DNA of 64,000 nt from a virus. The position numbers and the translations under genes were made by a program. This document shows positions 1,359 through 58,030 of the stretch, one piece after another; the first letter of the stretch is position 1, and each line of letters starts with the position of its first letter. The stretch spans positions 91,387 through 155,386 of the IMG/VR virus record IMGVR_UViG_3300017989_000003, one strand, 5' to 3'. A model generated the notes under the pieces. That model searched no databases. It was not told the origin of the DNA and worked only from the letters and a program-made list of their open reading frames with translations.

Positions 1359-1702
1359 GGGGGTTTGTGATGAAACAACTAGAATTTAAGTTTGTACAGA
1401 CAGGTATGTACAGAGTCGTCTACGAACTCTGTAAAGAGTGGATAGACGGTACGCTATCCTTTCATACAGAGTCGTTTCGATGCCGTATTAAACGTATTAT
1501 TCGTAAGTACTATATAGTTACAAAGTCACAGGAGGAAGCTCTTATTACAATAAGTAAGAGTATCATGAATAGACTAATGAGTTCTAAAGATTTTGTGACT
1601 AACAACATAAGAAAAGTAACTTCAGTTACGGTTGAAACTATAGAGCTATTTGTCACGTTTCAAAAGACAGGAACAACAAATGAAATCAAAAATAAATATT
1701 AA
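1355..1702 (+). CDS. hypothetical protein, N-terminal QLEFKF motif (start may be 1370)
   Basis: ORF in operon context. Confidence 0.7.
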   Translation: MRGFVMKQLEFKFVQTGMYRVVYELCKEWIDGTLSFHTESFRCRIKRIIRKYYIVTKSQEEALITISKSIMNRLMSSKDFVTNNIRKVTSVTVETIELFVTFQKTGTTNEIKNKY

Positions 1703-2039
1703 TATATGTAAAGTCTGTGGTATGCCGTGTTGTAAATTCGATAAGGACAGGACGCGTACGGATTTTATACTGTTGACGCAGAATGAATGTGAAGCGTTGC
1801 GACCTGAGCATAAAACAACAAGGTTTGGTGTTATAGTCAACAGGTGCGGATTCAGGGTGCGTTTACGGATAGTAAACGATGATGGGGATAAGCAATGTCC
1901 CTATTTGTCAGACACAGGTACATGTATGATAGCCTACGCACTTCCTAGTACATGAGTGGATTTTATAGAAAACTGTAGTAAGTACTTGCAGTTAAGTAAG
2001 GAATCAAAAGTAACCCCGTTATTCTTTTGGAGGAGATGA
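1680..2039 (+). CDS. YkgJ-like cysteine-cluster protein with in-frame TGA (1953-1955)
   Basis: CxxCxxxCC and CPYL motifs; colinear with paralog 4579..4926 past the TGA; read-through ends 1 nt before next ATG. Confidence 0.7.
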
Positions 2040-2040
2040 G

Positions 2041-2313
2041 ATGAATTTATTCATAAATACAAAGTACGTATGGAAAAATGGGTTTAATAAAACCAAGTCG
2101 GGTGTGATGGTTAATCCTAGGTTATTCTACTTACTATTGGATTACGTCAGGTATATAATTAATGTTGATATTAGTCATTTAGTGACGTCAGTTGTTTACC
2201 GTTTTTACAGTGATGAGATGAGTTGTCCATCACAGAACTACGTATCATTCCTCAATAGGATTGAGAACATGATTACCAGTATTAAGTACACGACGGGGGT
2301 ATGCTATGGCTAA
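2041..2313 (+). CDS. hypothetical protein
   Basis: ORF with GGAGG RBS. Confidence 0.7.
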   Translation: MNLFINTKYVWKNGFNKTKSGVMVNPRLFYLLLDYVRYIINVDISHLVTSVVYRFYSDEMSCPSQNYVSFLNRIENMITSIKYTTGVCYG

Positions 2314-4049: not shown

Positions 4050-4128
4050 ACAACATGTTGTGGTGTGTAGTATACAAAATACTACTACACCGTTACTGGT
4101 TGCAAAATACCCCTTGACAAAATTGACA
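4050..4128 (+). repeat. extended dispersed repeat copy (NrdR-box-like palindrome + GTTACYGGTTGCA + CCCCTTGACA)
   Basis: Colinear with inverted copy 9217..9286. Confidence 0.75.
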
Positions 4129-4129
4129 A

Positions 4130-4501
4130 ATGGAGGGAAAAACAATGGACTTTAACGAGATTTCTGAAAACAATGAACTTGCTCAGAATCACATAAACGA
4201 GCAAAGTTCCACTGAAATAAATGATTTCGTAGATTTCTTGGAAGCTGTTGAGAAAATCATCGAAGGTGAATCTCACAGCTCATTCGTTTTACGAATTCCA
4301 CTGGATGACATTAGATTAAAAAAACTCGAACAGGCACTGAAAGATGTTGATTTGGCGATAAACGCCAATCAACTCTACTGCCACAAAGGATGTGGCAGTA
4401 GAATCCTCTGGTTCGGCACCGCTGTCGGTGCCGAAACGTTTACCTGCGGTAAATGCACCGCCAGAGTAAATGTAAACCCCCCGTTGAGAAGAAAAAATTA
4501 A
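4130..4501 (+). CDS. hypothetical protein, C-terminal Zn-ribbon
   Basis: ORF; CxxxC...CxxC. Confidence 0.7.
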   Translation: MEGKTMDFNEISENNELAQNHINEQSSTEINDFVDFLEAVEKIIEGESHSSFVLRIPLDDIRLKKLEQALKDVDLAINANQLYCHKGCGSRILWFGTAVGAETFTCGKCTARVNVNPPLRRKN

Positions 4502-4578: not shown

Positions 4579-4926
4579 ATGGATGATATGGATATATGCG
4601 AAGTTTGCGGCATGGAATGCTGTAGATTTAAGGATAGAACCAGAAAGGGGTTCATACACATCCACGGTGAAGTGTATGAGAAGCTACTCCCTGAGCATCA
4701 AGGCGAATACTATGGAGAAACTCGGGACCATGGTTTCAGGGTATTTCTAATAGAAAAGGGCGACTTGTTGGTTTGCCCATATCTATCTGATGATATGAAA
4801 TCTTGTAAAATCAGTTATTGTCCTCCACGGACATGTTTGGAGTTCATAAGGAGCTGCGGGAAAGCTAAGCAGATAGTCGCTGAGTTACCGTTATTTATTA
4901 AACTGAAAGGAAAAAATGAAAAATAG
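4579..4926 (+). CDS. YkgJ-like cysteine-cluster (Fe-S/Zn) protein
   Basis: CxxCxxxCC, CPYL..C.I...PxxCxxF motifs; AGGAGG RBS. Confidence 0.8.
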   Translation: MDDMDICEVCGMECCRFKDRTRKGFIHIHGEVYEKLLPEHQGEYYGETRDHGFRVFLIEKGDLLVCPYLSDDMKSCKISYCPPRTCLEFIRSCGKAKQIVAELPLFIKLKGKNEK

Positions 4927-5612: not shown

Positions 5613-5867
5613 ATGAGAATAACTAGACACAAACCTAGCAACTTATATCCTAGAGGTTGCATTACAAAGCGAAATACAATTGTAGTTCGTTCTATGGATG
5701 AACTCTATAAGATACTAATAGGTATCTTTCAAGTTCCAACAATCGCAGTAGATACTTTAGTTCATAAATTAGAAAAGATTGGGATTGTAGAAATACATCA
5801 TTATAATCACAATATGAATACGTGGTTTGATTATATGTTTATCAAATCACATAACTTCAGATACTAA
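5613..5867 (+). CDS. hypothetical protein
   Basis: ORF with GGAGGT RBS. Confidence 0.7.
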   Translation: MRITRHKPSNLYPRGCITKRNTIVVRSMDELYKILIGIFQVPTIAVDTLVHKLEKIGIVEIHHYNHNMNTWFDYMFIKSHNFRY

Positions 5868-8625: not shown

Positions 8626-9216
8626 ATTGCTTTCATACTTTAATACTAATAGCATATCTAATAAATTCTAGCGCTAATACAATTAAAATAAAAGTATGTT
8701 GATAAATGAAAAATAAACAATTGTAAATAATTGTATTAGCAAATCTAATGCCAAATATCATATACAATAATACCTAGTCAACTAGTGGATTATCAGCTAA
8801 TCGTATAAATTCACTTGTACAATACAGTATATATTATGATTATGATTTCAACCGATTAGTTAATTATATGATTAGCATTATTGCTTTTTATCAGTATTGA
8901 CAAATGTATGCGCAATGACAAAATAGAAAATAGTAAAATTTCAAATTGACAAAAAGCAATACCGAACCTAAGGCTTAATTGCCAACTGTCAGAGCCACCC
9001 ATACATTTGTCAATTTTGACGGGTGGCGCCCAAGAATGACCACCCCCTCAAGATTTACTGAAAATTCGAATGTCAAGCACTCCACGGTCAAAAATCAGGC
9101 TCACGTCAACCACCTCTCAACACCCGTCCCACAAAGCAGTCACAACAGCCACCATTGCCAAAACAGCCACCCAGGTACTATGGTGAGTAAAAAAATTTTT
9201 GGAAAAAATCTAGGTG

Positions 9217-11724: not shown

Positions 11725-11997
11725 TTATTTATTAAATTTTAATAACTTCCAACTAATAGTTAAAAAATCACCATCCTCATAAATTTTATATCCTTTTTCT
11801 TCATAATGCTTGACAATTTGTTTTCTTAAATATTTCAGAGTGATTGATAACTCAATCTCATATAAGCCTCATATTGTATAACTTAGAATGATTTTGTCAA
11901 TTTTCTCTATCGCTTCTTCAATAGTATATTCAAAAGAAATTGACAGATAATTAACTCTGTTATTGTCCGATAATTTATAAGCTTCTTCCGCTTTCAT
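11725..11997 (-). CDS. hypothetical protein (GY...ISW type) with in-frame TGA (11871-11869)
   Basis: AAGGAG RBS; frame open on both sides of TGA; ends at next RBS. Confidence 0.65.
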
Positions 11998-12351: not shown

Positions 12352-12560
12352 TTTCCCTCACTTTTCTTTGTTCTAAATTCATAAAAATTGTATCCACTTT
12401 TATCGTCATATTCTGGTACATCTAGTAATTCGGCTAAAATTCTTTCGTGCTCTCTATGAGCATCAACATCTTCTCAGCAGCTACACCCTTCAGAGTGCAT
12501 ATAATTTGCAACCGCTTCTCTTATTTTTTCTAATAATTCTTGTTTTTCCGTTTTACCCAT
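12348..12560 (-). CDS. hypothetical protein with EGCSC(TGA) motif; in-frame TGA at 12476-12474
   Basis: TAATG overlap at start, ATGA overlap at end; fills the gap exactly. Confidence 0.7.
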
Positions 12561-13580: not shown

Positions 13581-14540
13581 CTACTCCTTAAAGTTTTTGT
13601 GTCTATTATTATAATCTATACATACGTCTAAACAATTATTTCTACATATTTCATCTTTGTAACAATTATGTTTTATATAGTAATCAAATCTTTGCGCTCG
13701 CATAAAACATCCTACCTCGCCTATAGGTTCACAACCTTCTCGCATTTTGATTATGCAAGGATAATGATAATTTCCTCGAATAGCCATATCATCAAGTATT
13801 AACGGGCATTTATGATTATCTGTTTTTTGAATGCCTCGAACGTTCCGACCGTTTTTATAATTATTTACTCGATATTTTAATATTGGATGGCTGTTCAATA
13901 TTTCGTCAGGTATTTTTTCGCAAAATTCTAACATTTCATTCGATTGTGCAGAACTTATTATTCTTATATCTGCCACACCTAATTTGTGTGCAAGTTCAAT
14001 TGTTTCTAAAGATTGTTGAATATTGTTTTTATCAAATACACAGCCAACCGTAACATAAGTTAATCTTGATAATATCTGAATGTTATTAATGATTTGTTGA
14101 AAATATCCTGATGTCCCCGACATTTTATCCGCGAAAGATTCACAACAAGCATCTAAAGATATAGAGAAATCGTTAACACCTAATTTTTTTAATTTAATGT
14201 AATAAGAAGTTTTTTGCGAACCATTAGTTGATATTGCAATTCTTTCTATCGAAGGTTTGTTTTTTGTATATTTTATTAATTCAGGTAACCATTTTACAAG
14301 AGTTGGTTCTCCTCCACTAAATCTTATGTTTTTTAATCCTTCATTACACCACAAATCAACAATATATTTTGCATGTTCGTAGGTAATATTTGCATCTTCC
14401 TGTGTTCCACGGCAATATTTGCAATTAAAATTGCATCTATTAGTCAATAATAACTCACATCTCCACAAAGGGCTGTTTATACCTGAATTTTCTGCTCTTT
14501 CGTCAGATAATGTATAAAATCCTATATCTTCCAGTTTCAT
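13581..14540 (-). CDS. radical SAM enzyme (MoaA/PqqE-like fold)
   Basis: CNFNCKYC, FSGGEP, STNG; start at ATG 14540 because the upstream extension lies in the tRNA-like gene. Confidence 0.9.
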   Translation of the reverse strand: MKLEDIGFYTLSDERAENSGINSPLWRCELLLTNRCNFNCKYCRGTQEDANITYEHAKYIVDLWCNEGLKNIRFSGGEPTLVKWLPELIKYTKNKPSIERIAISTNGSQKTSYYIKLKKLGVNDFSISLDACCESFADKMSGTSGYFQQIINNIQILSRLTYVTVGCVFDKNNIQQSLETIELAHKLGVADIRIISSAQSNEMLEFCEKIPDEILNSHPILKYRVNNYKNGRNVRGIQKTDNHKCPLILDDMAIRGNYHYPCIIKMREGCEPIGEVGCFMRAQRFDYYIKHNCYKDEICRNNCLDVCIDYNNRHKNFKE

Positions 14541-14555
14541 AATACTCCTTAAAGT

Positions 14556-14676
14556 TGGTGGGGCGGGCAAGGTTCGATACTTGCACGACAGGTTTACAGC
14601 AACCTTCTTTTACACCTGTCTTACTGCTGTTAGTATTTGCCACAGACTATTAGCGTCTAACTTTCGCCACCGCCCC
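14556..14676 (-). ncRNA. 121-nt tRNA-like RNA with expanded anticodon/variable region
   Basis: 7-bp acceptor GGGGCGG/CCGCCCC + ACCA; D-arm GCG/CGC; T-arm GCAAG/CTTGC; no canonical anticodon arm. Confidence 0.8.
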
Positions 14677-15030: not shown

Positions 15031-15216
15031 TTAATACCCCTCTCCCCAAACAATATGACCAATATCGCTTGTAGAATTTTTATCAAAAGAATAAATAGTA
15101 CTTATCCCGTTATTGCAAGCAGGACATACTTCTGGTCATGTACTATCTATTGGAATATAAATAACATTATCACAAATTCCACAATGACATATTTTGACAG
15201 TGCTTTCTTCCATCAT
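15031..15216 (-). CDS. small Zn-ribbon protein with in-frame TGA (15138-15136)
   Basis: MMEESTVKICHCGICDNVIYIPIDST*PEVCPACNNG...; ATGA overlap with upstream gene. Confidence 0.7.
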
Positions 15217-28179: not shown

Positions 28180-28240
28180 GACAGTTGTCGTCAAGGGGTA
28201 ATTCGTTACCGGTTGCAAAATACCCCTTGACAAAATTGAC
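28180..28240. repeat. dispersed palindromic repeat, full copy
   Basis: GTCAAGGGGTA/TACCCCTTGAC stem; near-identical to the 46956 and 57830 copies. Confidence 0.9.
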
Positions 28241-47013: not shown

Positions 47014-50000
47014 TTACCCACAACCACCAGCACCACCACAATTTCGGCATGTTTTACATGACCCTGTTATTTCTAAGTCAGGCGACCCACAATATGGGCA
47101 TACATCCCCACTCTTTAATAGCTTTGTAGTCTTTTTGCCAACTTTAGGTGATTGATTTGGGTTTTTATTAACTATTTTGTCGTCGGTTATTTCTTTGATA
47201 TGTTGCAATGCTTCTTCGATTGTAAACTCCCTAGTGTCGTTGTCTGAGTCATCTGACACGAATTCCTGCTCTAGATAAGTGAATATGTAGTCTATAATCG
47301 ACCCAGCAAACCTTATCTTAGGATTGTTGGTAATTCCAGACGGTTCAAATCTAGTATGCCTAAACTTATCCACTAGAACTTCTAGTGGAACACCATATTG
47401 TAAGGCAATAGAGGTCAATGTAGCTATAACATCTAATAAACCGTTTATTGTAGAACCAGTTCTAGCAGCATTGATAAAAATCTCCCCTACATCTCCATTT
47501 TCGTATAAACCAATGGATAGATACGCTTCTTGCTGTCCTACTGATAGTTTATGGATTATAGCAGGTCGTGTCGCGGGCATTCTATTTCTGTTAAGTTGTT
47601 TAGGTGTATTCGGTATCACTGGCTCTTTATCGTCTGAAGTTGAGCTAGTCGATAGTGGTTGTACACCTTTTGAGCCATCTCGGTAAATAGATATGTCTTT
47701 CAATCCTAGTCTGTGAGCTTTTATGACAACATTCTCAATGTCTTCAATGGTAGCTTCGTTCGGTAAAGATACTGTTTTTGATATTGCACCTGACAAGAAT
47801 GGTTGTGTAGCCGCAAGCATCATCAAGTGTCCGTCTGACGATATATACCGTTTATTCCCTTTCGTTTTATAAGCACAATCAAATACAGCTAATGTCTCGT
47901 CATCAATGTAAGGCGCACCTTCCATGGTATCGTTATCTTCTATGTATTCGAGTATTTCTGCTATTTGTTCATCTGTGTACTCTCGGGCTTCTAACCCTTT
48001 TCGTACTATGGTAGTTGCCATCTTTAGATGACCACCGCCTGATAATTTTTTATATACCACTAATCCCATTAGTGGTTCAACTCCTGTTGATTCGAAGTCC
48101 ATTGCAAACCCAATAGTGCCTGTAGGAGCAAGTAGTGTAACTTGTGCGTTTCTTAAAGGTGGCTTTTCAGATAGTATATTACATAATTGCTGAATTTCGT
48201 CTGTGAATAACTGCTTTGGTAGTTTTTTCCATGCGTTAATATGCTGGTCTATTACTTTATAGTGTGTATCAGGGTTATAGTGTTTGTAGGGACTAAGTAT
48301 ACTAGCTATTGCTGCACTTACTGTATAAGACGTAAGAGTCATTAGCATTGTGATTGAAGACGCTATTGTCCTTCCGTTGTCAGAGTCATACGGAATGCCT
48401 AGTGACGCAAGTAAACCTCCAAGATTACCATATCCCAGTCCAATTGGGCGATAATCACGACTATTATCGGTTATTTCTTTTGTTGGGTAACCTGATAAAT
48501 TTATTAGTATGTCTTGTGTTATAGTCATAATTTTTACAGCTGCAATAAAACCTTGAACATCAAAATCTAAGTCGTCCTCTCGAAATTTCATGAGATTAAT
48601 ACTAGCTAGATTACAGGCTGAGTCATCGCAAAAAATAAATTCCCCGCAGTTGTGTACATGGATACCATTTGCCCATCCTGCTGGCTCACTTTCACCTAAA
48701 ACTGTAAAATCATAAACACACCCATTGCCTATACATTCAAATGATTTCACCTTAGTAGTGTATGGTTTACCAGATGAATTAGTAGATTCTAAAATTTTGA
48801 TTAAAGCATCAGTTTTGTACTTTTGGATAAATCCGATATGCTCTGCAAATTTTTTCAAACTTCTTACGTTAGCTATGTTTAGGTCATAACTTTCTTTACA
48901 TTCATATACTCCATTCCTAAATTCCACTTCTTTTTGTTTATTTGTTGTTATGTATGAAAATACGCCGTACAGTGTGAGTAATTTCTGAATTGTAGTACAC
49001 ACATTTCTATTAGTTGTTTTTAGTGCTACTCTTGTGTTTTCTGGAGTAGAGCCATTTGCTGAAAATAAGCCTTTTAAGAACGCGGCTATTTCTTTTTTCG
49101 AAGCTGATAGCAGTGTTTTAGGAAAAGTTCTTTGTGGGATTTTTTCTTTGTCTATGTTAAGAAAATCCCACAAATGGTTAAAATAACTTCGGTATATTAC
49201 TCTTTTTTCACAACGGTCATCTCTTTCTGTTAATAAACTAAGTAATGGGTCTTTGTTTTCGTTTAATTTTAATGACACAAAATGTATTACGTCGTCATCT
49301 TCGCCGTCCTTCGAAAAATACATTGCAGCGTATTTATGATGTTCATCTGCGTAAGTACCATCCCCGAATAAAAATCCAGCGATTGTGAAGTCAGATTCAT
49401 CTAAATCATTATTTTGGTTTATTTCGCTGTTCCAATCAGGAACATCGTCTACCACTAAAGATATTCTTCTATTAACACAATCATGAGCCGCCACATAACC
49501 ATCTTCTCCACAAAATATTTTATGGTCGCTAGTGCATTTTAATTCAAATCCGGATGTTGTTTCGAGTTTGAACACCGGTTTTACACCAGTTTTGAACACT
49601 TTAACTTTTTTTAATCCATCTGGCGTTAGTATATCCACAGTACTACCGTCTAATTCCATTATTTCTTTTATGCCGTCTCGTGTATGCAATAATGTATCAG
49701 CTGATAGACAAGGATTACTGCTTTTAATCTTAAATTTATCGGAACAGGTGTTCCAATTGTTAATATTGTCTATATAGAAATAACCTGGGTCTCCACATCT
49801 ATGGGTAGCTTTAGCTGCTTCATGCAGTAATTCTCGCGCTTTGAACGTCGGCGCTTTGTGTGCATTTAGGTCAGGACGTACAAACTTAGTGTCCCATTGA
49901 AGGTCATTTTCTACAGCGTCCATAAAATCATCTGTTATGGCAATAGACGTGTTAACATTTTGGAAAGCTACAGTGTCATATGCTTCATTTGGGTATGTAT

Positions 50001-51387
50001 TTGGGTCACCATATCCTGCGTTCATAAGAGCGACAGCTTTCTCTTCTTCGTTTGCCTTACACGTGATAAAGTCTACGATTTCTGGATGGTCTACATTTAG
50101 TATTTCCATTTTTGCTGACCTTCTGCTGTTAAAAACAGCAATACCATTTCCTGAGTATATGTCGCTAGTTTCAGACCATATTACGTAGTTATGTCCACTT
50201 TCTGGTGATTTGTCGTCAGCCGTTGGGCAGTCAACTTCCACAGAATAGACATCCATAATGCCAACTTTGCTAACTGACACTACACGGTGGTTTTCTTCTG
50301 ATACAGTTTCTACTAATTTATCCGCGTGCATTTGGGAATGTGTAGATAAAGATGTCAAGTCTTTAGCAATTAGTCTATGCAAGAGTTCTTTTCCTTTATT
50401 TCCATCGTGTAGGTTAAGAGATAAGTAGTTTTCTTTGTCCCTACTTACACTACAACTAAATAAAGAATTACCTGGTTTCAAATCACCTGCTTTACGTACT
50501 GTATTGTCAGATAATCTAACAGGATGGTCATCGGACATGTCGAATACGCCTTTATCAGTTGTTATTCTAACAACTTGTTTTTTGCCAGACTTCCACGCTC
50601 TAGCCCATTTAGCTTTATACCTACCAGCTGGTGGGTCGTAACTTAATACTATAAACTCCTCATTAGACTCAGCTAAATCTTTTACAGGAATAGCGCCTTT
50701 TGCTGTGTATACCCGCTGGTATGGAGCTAAACACTTGCCTCCAGACTTTACTATGTGAGCAATTGAGTCATATATACGCATGAATGATAGTACTCCAGAC
50801 GCTTTTCCACCTCCAGTTAAATTTTCGTCTTTTGCTCTTAGACTACTAAGGTTCTTTCCAGTGCCAGAACCCTCTTTGAAGATAAAAGCTTCTTTATTAG
50901 CTACATCCATGATACTATCCATTGTATCGTCTAGCGCTAGTATGAAACAAGCTGAGCATTGGTTAGAACTATTCTCGACACCTAGATTAAACCACACTGG
51001 TGAATTGAGCCATGCTATTTGCATAATAATTATCCACATTAGCTCATCGCGAAAAACATGTGAGTCGTCAGCATTGAAATAACCTGCTGTTACCCCATAG
51101 TCTGTTATTGTATTAACTACTCTTGCTGCTAAGTGCCGCAAAGAACTTTCTCGGTTCTCGCCTGCTCCCTTAAAAAATTTAGACGCTATAATAGTCATAG
51201 CGTTCAAACTGTAGAAATCTGGGAATTCTACATCCTTTTGTTCGAATATAGTATTGCCAGCATTGTCAATAATGTTTACATCTTCAGTAACCCAATGTAA
51301 GTGGTCTTTTTTTGCCATTACATCATGGTAAAAAGAGCTACTATTTTCTTTATAGTAGCCCTCGGTGAAAAAACGACGTATATTCAC
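47014..51387 (-). CDS. nrdJ: class II (B12-dependent) ribonucleotide reductase with two inteins and C-terminal TSCPD-like domain
   Basis: NSPVWFN, QCSACFI, NP|CGE, APTGTI, AISKTV, YRDG; terminal CPxC/CxxC. Confidence 0.95.
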   Translation of the reverse strand: MNIRRFFTEGYYKENSSSFYHDVMAKKDHLHWVTEDVNIIDNAGNTIFEQKDVEFPDFYSLNAMTIIASKFFKGAGENRESSLRHLAARVVNTITDYGVTAGYFNADDSHVFRDELMWIIIMQIAWLNSPVWFNLGVENSSNQCSACFILALDDTMDSIMDVANKEAFIFKEGSGTGKNLSSLRAKDENLTGGGKASGVLSFMRIYDSIAHIVKSGGKCLAPYQRVYTAKGAIPVKDLAESNEEFIVLSYDPPAGRYKAKWARAWKSGKKQVVRITTDKGVFDMSDDHPVRLSDNTVRKAGDLKPGNSLFSCSVSRDKENYLSLNLHDGNKGKELLHRLIAKDLTSLSTHSQMHADKLVETVSEENHRVVSVSKVGIMDVYSVEVDCPTADDKSPESGHNYVIWSETSDIYSGNGIAVFNSRRSAKMEILNVDHPEIVDFITCKANEEEKAVALMNAGYGDPNTYPNEAYDTVAFQNVNTSIAITDDFMDAVENDLQWDTKFVRPDLNAHKAPTFKARELLHEAAKATHRCGDPGYFYIDNINNWNTCSDKFKIKSSNPCLSADTLLHTRDGIKEIMELDGSTVDILTPDGLKKVKVFKTGVKPVFKLETTSGFELKCTSDHKIFCGEDGYVAAHDCVNRRISLVVDDVPDWNSEINQNNDLDESDFTIAGFLFGDGTYADEHHKYAAMYFSKDGEDDDVIHFVSLKLNENKDPLLSLLTERDDRCEKRVIYRSYFNHLWDFLNIDKEKIPQRTFPKTLLSASKKEIAAFLKGLFSANGSTPENTRVALKTTNRNVCTTIQKLLTLYGVFSYITTNKQKEVEFRNGVYECKESYDLNIANVRSLKKFAEHIGFIQKYKTDALIKILESTNSSGKPYTTKVKSFECIGNGCVYDFTVLGESEPAGWANGIHVHNCGEFIFCDDSACNLASINLMKFREDDLDFDVQGFIAAVKIMTITQDILINLSGYPTKEITDNSRDYRPIGLGYGNLGGLLASLGIPYDSDNGRTIASSITMLMTLTSYTVSAAIASILSPYKHYNPDTHYKVIDQHINAWKKLPKQLFTDEIQQLCNILSEKPPLRNAQVTLLAPTGTIGFAMDFESTGVEPLMGLVVYKKLSGGGHLKMATTIVRKGLEAREYTDEQIAEILEYIEDNDTMEGAPYIDDETLAVFDCAYKTKGNKRYISSDGHLMMLAATQPFLSGAISKTVSLPNEATIEDIENVVIKAHRLGLKDISIYRDGSKGVQPLSTSSTSDDKEPVIPNTPKQLNRNRMPATRPAIIHKLSVGQQEAYLSIGLYENGDVGEIFINAARTGSTINGLLDVIATLTSIALQYGVPLEVLVDKFRHTRFEPSGITNNPKIRFAGSIIDYIFTYLEQEFVSDDSDNDTREFTIEEALQHIKEITDDKIVNKNPNQSPKVGKKTTKLLKSGDVCPYCGSPDLEITGSCKTCRNCGGAGGCG
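48649..49710 (-). mobile_element. intein (354 aa) with LAGLIDADG endonuclease at the catalytic NP|C site
   Basis: CLSADT...IAGFLFGDG...FLKGLFSANG...VHN|C. Confidence 0.92.
50128..50733 (-). mobile_element. intein (202 aa) with eroded endonuclease region
   Basis: GGK|CLAPYQ...SDDHP...AVFN|SRR. Confidence 0.88.
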
Positions 51388-57829: not shown

Positions 57830-57890
57830 ACAGTTGTCGTCAAGGGGTAATTCGTTACCGGTTGCAAAATACCCCTTGACAAAATTGACA
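57830..57890. repeat. dispersed palindromic repeat, full copy
   Basis: Matches the 28180 copy. Confidence 0.9.
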
Positions 57891-58030
57891 ATAATAAATT
57901 TACTATAATACCATAAAAATAATTTTTTGAATTAAATCTATTGACTTGTTACAAGATTTGTGCGACTATGAATTGAAAGTAGGGTGGTCGTATCGTGGAT
58001 TTATTTTACTAGAACAAAAGGAATGCTGAG

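Follow-up and report, generated by a model that had tools for sequence, protein, structure and literature searches.

Genes and features at the locus

The gene considered here, g1, lies in the final 64 kb of a 155,386-bp contig held as an IMG/VR virus record, with direct terminal repeats and a rating of 100% complete. These 64,000 nucleotides are called the window below, and positions are those of the window unless the whole genome is named. The features in and around g1 are the following:

1680..2039, plus strand: g1, 119 codons if the UGA at 1953-1955 is decoded, with an N-terminal CxxCxxCC motif, eight family-invariant cysteines and a terminal TGA at 2037-2039
1953-1955, plus strand: in-frame TGA, codon 92 of g1, aligned with Cys86 of the paralog and with the Cys of 'PSVC' in the homolog P0004
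1959-2005, plus strand: candidate SECIS of g1, an imperfect 47-nt hairpin whose upper stem (1971-1993) carries a bulged U
2041..2313, plus strand: next gene, 90 aa, its ATG placed 1 nt past the final stop of g1
4579..4926, plus strand: intact paralog of g1, 115 aa, with TGT (Cys86) at 4834-4836

The frame opened by the ATG at 1680 holds a single internal stop, the TGA at 1953-1955, and then runs on to 1 nt before the ATG of the next gene, a layout described in the original prediction and confirmed here. The ribosome-binding site of that next gene (GGAGGAG, 2030-2036) lies inside the post-UGA extension of g1. The gene-caller products for g1 are 77 and 91 aa long, and both end at 1955. Read-through of the UGA gives a product with 44% identity to that of the paralog (BLASTP, E=2e-24), and the alignment runs to the ...PLF at the end. 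The similarity had been said to continue past the TGA, and this stands up on the tail taken by itself, since the 27 post-TGA residues alone match the tail of the paralog (E=0.002); their identity to it is 39% as against 44% overall, and they keep the Cys at column 93 and the PLF motif. The TGA aligns with Cys86 of the paralog, as had been claimed, and the third, distant homolog P0004 also has a Cys at this position. The codon-usage score of g1 is weak, with 0.11 bits/codon before the stop and 0.04 after it.

It had been set beforehand that a TGA unique to one assembly would speak against the prediction. The same TGA is present in a JGI contig (3300017987, 100% identity over 5.7 kb) and in an ENA contig (ERZ27256778, a single mismatch in 3973 nt, at 5623). 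All the assembly copies of the phage are near-clonal and offer no usable diversity, and every sequence cluster that was looked up held identical copies only, one of them also with a start-site variant of the same gene. These copies thus carry no evolutionary information on the g1 TGA, and their identity does not demonstrate that it persists under selection.

The g1 family resembles YkgJ at the level of motifs

When 1.84 billion representative proteins were searched with a profile, one relative of g1 beyond the paralog came up, the 154-aa protein P0004 from short ENA contigs, and the searches run gave no further homolog. Eight Cys columns are invariant across g1, the paralog and P0004, and the UGA column is one of them. 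A family alignment had been proposed as a way of finding other UGA-containing members, and no g1 homolog was found to carry a TGA.

The original prediction had called g1 "YkgJ-like". This label holds for the motifs, as the family shows a CxxCGxxCC followed by C..LS, C.I.Y and (S/R)TC.(E/D)F, which resembles both the N-terminal CxxCGxxCC and the C-terminal Cys motifs of YkgJ/UPF0153 (Pfam PF03692, putative zinc- or iron-chelating). It does not hold for family membership. Pfam hmmscan gave no match for g1, the paralog or P0004 at E<=1, and PF03692 (CxxCxxCC/YkgJ) was absent from the phage genome at E<=10, whereas 11 of the 14 control genomes matched. Comparison with E. coli YkgJ by hhalign gave a single local match of 16 columns with a probability of 2.8%, in which the UGA aligns with the Cys of 'SSTCREF'. 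Judged from these alignments, g1 is YkgJ-like at the motif level only, and its family has three known members, which profile methods do not join to YkgJ/UPF0153. Nothing usable was found in Pfam, PHROGs or NCBIfam for g1, its paralog or the four genes g2-g5 described below, and the AlphaFold2 model of the paralog was unusable (pLDDT 42.8).

A hairpin downstream of the g1 UGA

The minimal SECIS of E. coli is given, in the passage of PMC8659212 that cites Liu et al. 1998 for it, as a 17-nt stem-loop 11 nt from the UGA. The bSECIS consensus places an apical loop of 3-9 nt at 16-37 nt from the UGA, with a G in its first two positions and a minimum free energy (MFE) of -7.5 kcal/mol or below (PMC13188914). 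The weak hairpin originally noted downstream of the g1 UGA, TTATAG-AAAA-CTGTAG, does exist at 1963-1978 with 6 bp including two G-U pairs, and the hairpin at 1959-2005 is a better fold. The latter has an apical loop AAGU, or GUAAGUACU in a 7-bp variant, and reaches -10.6 kcal/mol, with z=-2.07 against dinucleotide shuffles; a first fold of 106 nt around the UGA had given z=+0.53. The upper stem begins 15 nt past the UGA, outside the interval of 9-12 nt used below. In our approximation of the bSECIS model the g1 hairpin passes (9-nt loop starting with GU, 22 nt from the UGA, -8.1 kcal/mol), as do 15% of random codons, and it is not significant under synonymous-codon resampling (P=0.19). No SECIS or other Rfam family was found near g1 or across the window. 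Among the five UGA genes of this phage, g1 is the weakest in hairpin position.

Four further phage genes are interrupted by a single TGA

The genome was scanned, blind to the type of stop, for an ORF followed by one stop and by an open extension in which no other gene lies and which lacks its own start codon. Strong cases were obtained for TGA only, namely g2, g3 and g4, all on the minus strand and with 0.32-0.55 bits/codon after the stop, while TAA and TAG gave only short, weak tails (at most 0.19 bits/codon). Together with g1 and with g5, which is located beyond the window, the candidates number five. The additional candidates are the following:

11725..11997, minus strand: g2, 90 codons, protein without Cys; in-frame TGA at 11869-11871; coding score after the stop 0.32 bits/codon
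12348..12560, minus strand: g3, 70 codons, reading GCSC-UGA-EDVDAHREH; in-frame TGA at 12474-12476; coding score after the stop 0.55 bits/codon
15031..15216, minus strand: g4, 61 codons, zinc-ribbon-like with CxCxxC...U...CxxC; in-frame TGA at 15136-15138; coding score after the stop 0.38 bits/codon
genome 48534..48878 (positions 1034-1378 of locus L057), outside the window: g5, reading NKNM-U-ASNCPC

Each of the five small genes g1-g5 contains one in-frame stop, which is a TGA in all of them, and in four of the five candidate proteins the UGA falls in a Cys-rich motif. Gene-caller output for the UGA genes consists of fragments of 77, 91, 42 and 28 aa, or no call is made. The genes g2, g3 and g4 are each tightly packed or translationally coupled with their neighbours, g3 with both of them (TAATG and ATGA) and g4 with the upstream gene through an ATGA. 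A weak PHROG match (PHROG 5321, E=0.009) spans the g2 UGA, and the context of the g4 UGA, AGTACATGA, is identical to that of g1.

Hairpins follow these UGAs at a short distance. Downstream of the g2 UGA a perfect 6-bp stem (GAUUGA-GUUA-UCAAUC, 11842-11857) begins 11 nt past the codon, and the same distance separates the UGA from UGCUC-AUAGA-GAGCA (12448-12462) in g3 and from UCCUG-(10 nt)-CGGGA (15105-15124) in g4, the last having a probability of 0.014 given the protein sequence. In g5 a GC-rich stem GUCCGU/GCGGGC with the loop GUUU starts 9-10 nt past the UGA (-16.3 kcal/mol, z=-2.1). The hairpins of g3 and g4 are without the loop G of the bSECIS consensus.

Homologs of g3 have a cysteine codon at the UGA position

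No homologs of g2, g4 or g5 could be retrieved, and g3 proved to have many. In all 35 distinct g3 homologs from IMG/VR and metagenome contigs, the codon at the UGA position is a Cys codon, TGT or TGC (EGC.C-Cys). The UGA therefore replaces an invariant Cys at both sites where this could be tested, g1 and g3. Two search patterns were used in each scan for g3 homologs, one including the Cys and the other lying upstream of it; since the upstream pattern did not contain that Cys, TGA forms of g3 homologs were findable, and none of the 35 homologs has one. The downstream hairpin of the g3 type is likewise absent from all 35 Cys-form homologs. Across the g1 and g3 homologs, which are free of TGA at this position, we found neither Sec/Cys alternation between lineages nor conservation or covariation of the UGA and hairpin. 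Loci L006-L009 were rejected as g3 relatives, as their matches are chance matches inside a longer unrelated ORF.

Apart from the UGA question, the loci L005 and L010-L048 make up a widespread, uncatalogued family of phage proteins of about 70 aa with the invariant pattern ADYMxSEGCSCCE...H..H...LL.VP.Y.D.SGY.F, which has no Pfam, PHROG or NCBIfam match.

Hairpin position and mutation statistics across the set

A hairpin was counted when a contiguous stem of at least 5 bp, with at most one G-U pair and a loop of 4-10 nt, started 9-12 nt after the codon. The rates obtained were the following:

All in-frame codons (n=40,646): 9.9%
Cys codons: 10.2%
All TGA triplets: 10.0%
TAA/TAG read-through candidates: 6/60
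In-frame UGAs of g1-g5: 4/5 (P about 4e-4)

Stems starting exactly 11 nt past the UGA are found in three of the five genes (g2-g4), against a background of 3.2% (P about 3e-4), and with the broadest setting, a start at 7-16 nt, all five genes score as against 24% (P about 9e-4); the hairpin parameters were picked after seeing the data, and all these P values are optimistic. When the encoded protein was controlled for by synonymous resampling, the hairpin position gave P of about 0.002 in our calculation from the per-gene frequencies. What is enriched is the position: the MFE of the 48 nt past the five UGAs is not unusual for the set (P=0.33).

We also considered what random nonsense mutation would give. 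With the codon usage of this phage, TGA accounts for 24-26% of the possible nonsense mutations and Cys>TGA for about 3%. Gene by gene, this model gives a chance of about 0.009 that TGA is the stop in all four of the in-window genes, and it puts a nonsense hit on Cys at 0.16 in g1 and 0.065 in g3. Independent random pseudogenisation hence fits the set poorly, and for g1 alone it may apply.

The phage uses the standard code and lacks machinery for selenocysteine

The source is an uncultured tailed phage of 38% GC, which encodes a ribonucleotide reductase, tail-fibre and baseplate proteins, a head protease and a major head protein. The large subunit of the ribonucleotide reductase (47014-51387, minus strand, 1457 aa) has a family match split into two stretches, which may reflect the insertion of one or more elements, perhaps inteins. 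Elsewhere in the genome, a repeat of about 39 nt occurs in three intergenic copies at 97-100% identity (4091-4129, 28204-28240 and 57853-57891). In the first copy, TTGACA-like boxes stand directly before the gene at 4130, and the repeat probably serves as a common promoter or regulatory site.

With code 11, ORFs of at least 100 aa cover 88% of the genome and long genes are free of TGA; reading any of the stop codons as sense brings little gain in coverage. Among 187 confidently called genes the terminal stop is TAA in 103, TAG in 60 and TGA in 24, and several of the TGA-terminated genes are coupled to the next through an ATGA. This stop usage is unusual for a genome of 38% GC, TGA being much rarer than TAG. 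Extensions past terminal TGA did not differ from those past TAA or TAG in the phage genes, and the +4 base did not separate in-frame from terminal TGAs.

The sole tRNA found by ARAGORN with default settings is a tRNA-Ile (GAT). These settings gave no suppressor tRNA and no tRNA-Sec in the phage, relaxed settings returned noise only, and the Rfam model of tRNA-Sec (RF01852) had no match. SelA, the SelB wing domain and an AIRS domain of the SelD type are not encoded in the phage either. A 121-nt tRNA-like RNA at 14556-14676 (minus strand) contains no TCA triplet by our reading and was for this reason rejected as a reader of UGA by normal pairing. Next to it (13581-14540, minus strand) lies a MoaA-like radical SAM gene, Cys-rich in its C-terminal region, which begins 16 nt past the CCA end of the RNA; with a ribosome-binding site between them, the two are probably co-transcribed.

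An IS605-type TnpB with OrfB_IS605 and Cas12f1-like TNB domains is encoded inside the phage at 9449-10570 (minus strand). It was used in an attempt to link the phage to a host, and its closest genome match, in a cyanobacterial MAG, is only 29% identical. Short coding-like ORFs just downstream of TnpB, at about 9048-9170, probably overlap its guide-RNA region.

Decoding of the UGAs and its alternatives

The UGA of g1 is more likely read through than the result of a simple gene-killing mutation, and for the pattern seen across the genome UGA decoding, taken in all its forms, is the probable explanation. Of these forms, selenocysteine (Sec) insertion dependent on the host is the one that we favour for the UGA at 1953-1955, tentatively, at somewhat short of an even chance. 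The codon would then not be the end of the gene: during infection, the Sec machinery of the host (tRNA-Sec, SelB, SelA and SelD) would insert selenocysteine at the invariant-Cys position, with the mRNA hairpin at 1959-2005, just downstream of the UGA, serving as the anchor for SelB. When selenium is short, cysteine could be inserted instead. The full-length product would be a CxxCxxCC protein of 119 residues with eight Cys positions, probably metal-binding or redox-active, and ribosomes that fail to recode would release a 91-residue fragment. Since the phage has no Sec machinery of its own, any insertion of Sec must use that of the host; TGA being an ordinary stop elsewhere in a genome that follows the standard code, the situation is the one expected for Sec.

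By the same reasoning, g1 would be one of at least five such phage genes that together form a small, host-dependent "selenoproteome". In its full form this proposal has a phage with at least five unrelated small proteins, in each of which one Cys has given way to a UGA-encoded Sec read through host SelB and a minimal hairpin about 11 nt downstream; we regard it as possible and hold it with more reserve than the reading of g1. A plausible origin would be near-neutral drift, in which, in a Sec-active host, Cys codons that happen to be followed by a suitably placed hairpin drift to UGA. Such a route would explain the weak and heterogeneous hairpins as well as the absence of TGA in other lineages.

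In bacterial selenoprotein genes, such as E. coli fdhF, a SECIS within the ORF is bound by SelB, and the phage genes are like them in that the UGA stands at a Cys of the homologs, the frame after the UGA is conserved and TGA is a normal stop elsewhere. The stem-loop lies at exactly 11 nt in g2-g4, and the g1 loop, 22 nt away, falls inside the interval of 16-37 nt. The phage genes differ in that their carrier has no Sec machinery, that Sec-containing homologs were not found, that the hairpins are shorter and weaker, two of them without the loop G, and that several unrelated genes of one genome are concerned rather than one family across genomes. A point against Sec is that the UGA site resembles a ligand in a metal-site-like Cys cluster and not the CxxU redox pair of bacterial selenoproteins.

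For g1 the original prediction had left the choice between a selenoprotein and a single TGY>TGA mutation undecided. The genome context now favours recoding, and g1 taken alone stays ambiguous, because its hairpin is off the 11-nt spacing and reaches only P=0.19, no homolog has the TGA and the paralog could cover a loss. A recent nonsense mutation would have cut g1 down to 91 residues, at the cost of two of its eight invariant Cys, with the paralog taking over the function and the downstream frame not yet decayed. For g1 in particular this is a serious alternative, if an unlikely one. The paralog at 4579..4926 is intact, Cys>TGA makes up 16% of the possible nonsense mutations in so Cys-rich a gene, and in a clonal population a hitch-hiking defect could be fixed; the codon-usage score, weak on either side of the stop, the hairpin that is not significant under the synonymous control and the lack of TGA-bearing homologs speak for it too. 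Against it, the tail of g1 is conserved like the rest of the protein and its frame is open exactly up to the next gene. Extended to the set, the same explanation would need a single complete phage, intact in all else, to carry four or five pseudogenes of independent origin, every one through a TGA, with Cys as the position at both sites open to testing and a hairpin at the SECIS distance in four of them; the joint probabilities of this are about 1e-3 or lower.

Leaky termination that is independent of a SECIS appears less probable still. Here a near-cognate tRNA (Cys or Trp) or a host suppressor would read the UGA at low frequency, perhaps helped by the hairpins, which would hold the small proteins at a low dose or tie them to the translation state of the host. 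Only UGAs at Cys (or Trp) codons would then give a working product, and this would explain where they are placed. Several observations suit such leakiness: the hairpins are short and differ from one another, their stability is not out of the ordinary and two of them are without the SECIS loop G; positions in a Cys cluster are unusual places for Sec; g2 is entirely without Cys; and the rarity of TGA among the terminal stops of the phage (24 as against 60 TAG and 103 TAA) would fit a host with poor UGA termination. Bacterial near-cognate reading of UGA inserts mostly Trp, which would destroy a Cys ligand. The phage encodes no suppressor tRNA by ARAGORN (tRNA-Ile only, and a tRNA-like RNA without TCA), and the 11-nt spacing is specifically the SelB/SECIS geometry, as described for the minimal element in PMC8659212.

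Genome-wide reassignment of TGA, under code 4 or 25 or through a suppressor system of the phage, or else an error of sequencing or assembly, has in its favour only that the in-frame stops are all TGA, and is very improbable: genome-wide recoding is effectively refuted by the 88% ORF coverage under code 11 with long genes free of TGA, by the 24 genes that end normally in TGA, several with ATGA coupling, and by the lack of a suppressor tRNA, while these sites read identically in every retrieved JGI, ENA and Logan assembly that spans them.

Stop codons are known to be recoded in phages by suppressor tRNAs, TAG to Gln or TGA to Trp, in the late genes of crAss-like and other phages. As in those phages, in-frame stops stand here in phage genes that need read-through. 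The present case differs in having five sites only, in small genes of an early type, with no suppressor tRNA and with structural genes in the standard code.

Implications

Selenocysteine insertion is currently regarded as a trait of cells. Neither phages nor viruses come up in a 2026 review of the prokaryotic selenoproteome, and a full-text literature search found no phage-encoded selenoprotein, only cases from eukaryotic viruses. If the five genes are merely decaying, the finding is an ordinary one, though five losses that are all TGA, with positioned hairpins and at Cys where this can be tested, would be odd. If the UGAs are decoded, the gene callers used on phages systematically truncate or miss such genes, and the Sec trait of the host becomes a clue to host range. 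Phage gene expression could then depend on the selenium metabolism or status of the host and on its Sec machinery. Should the mini-selenoproteome be true, the conversion of Cys to Sec would have taken place at the level of a whole genome and not within one protein family.
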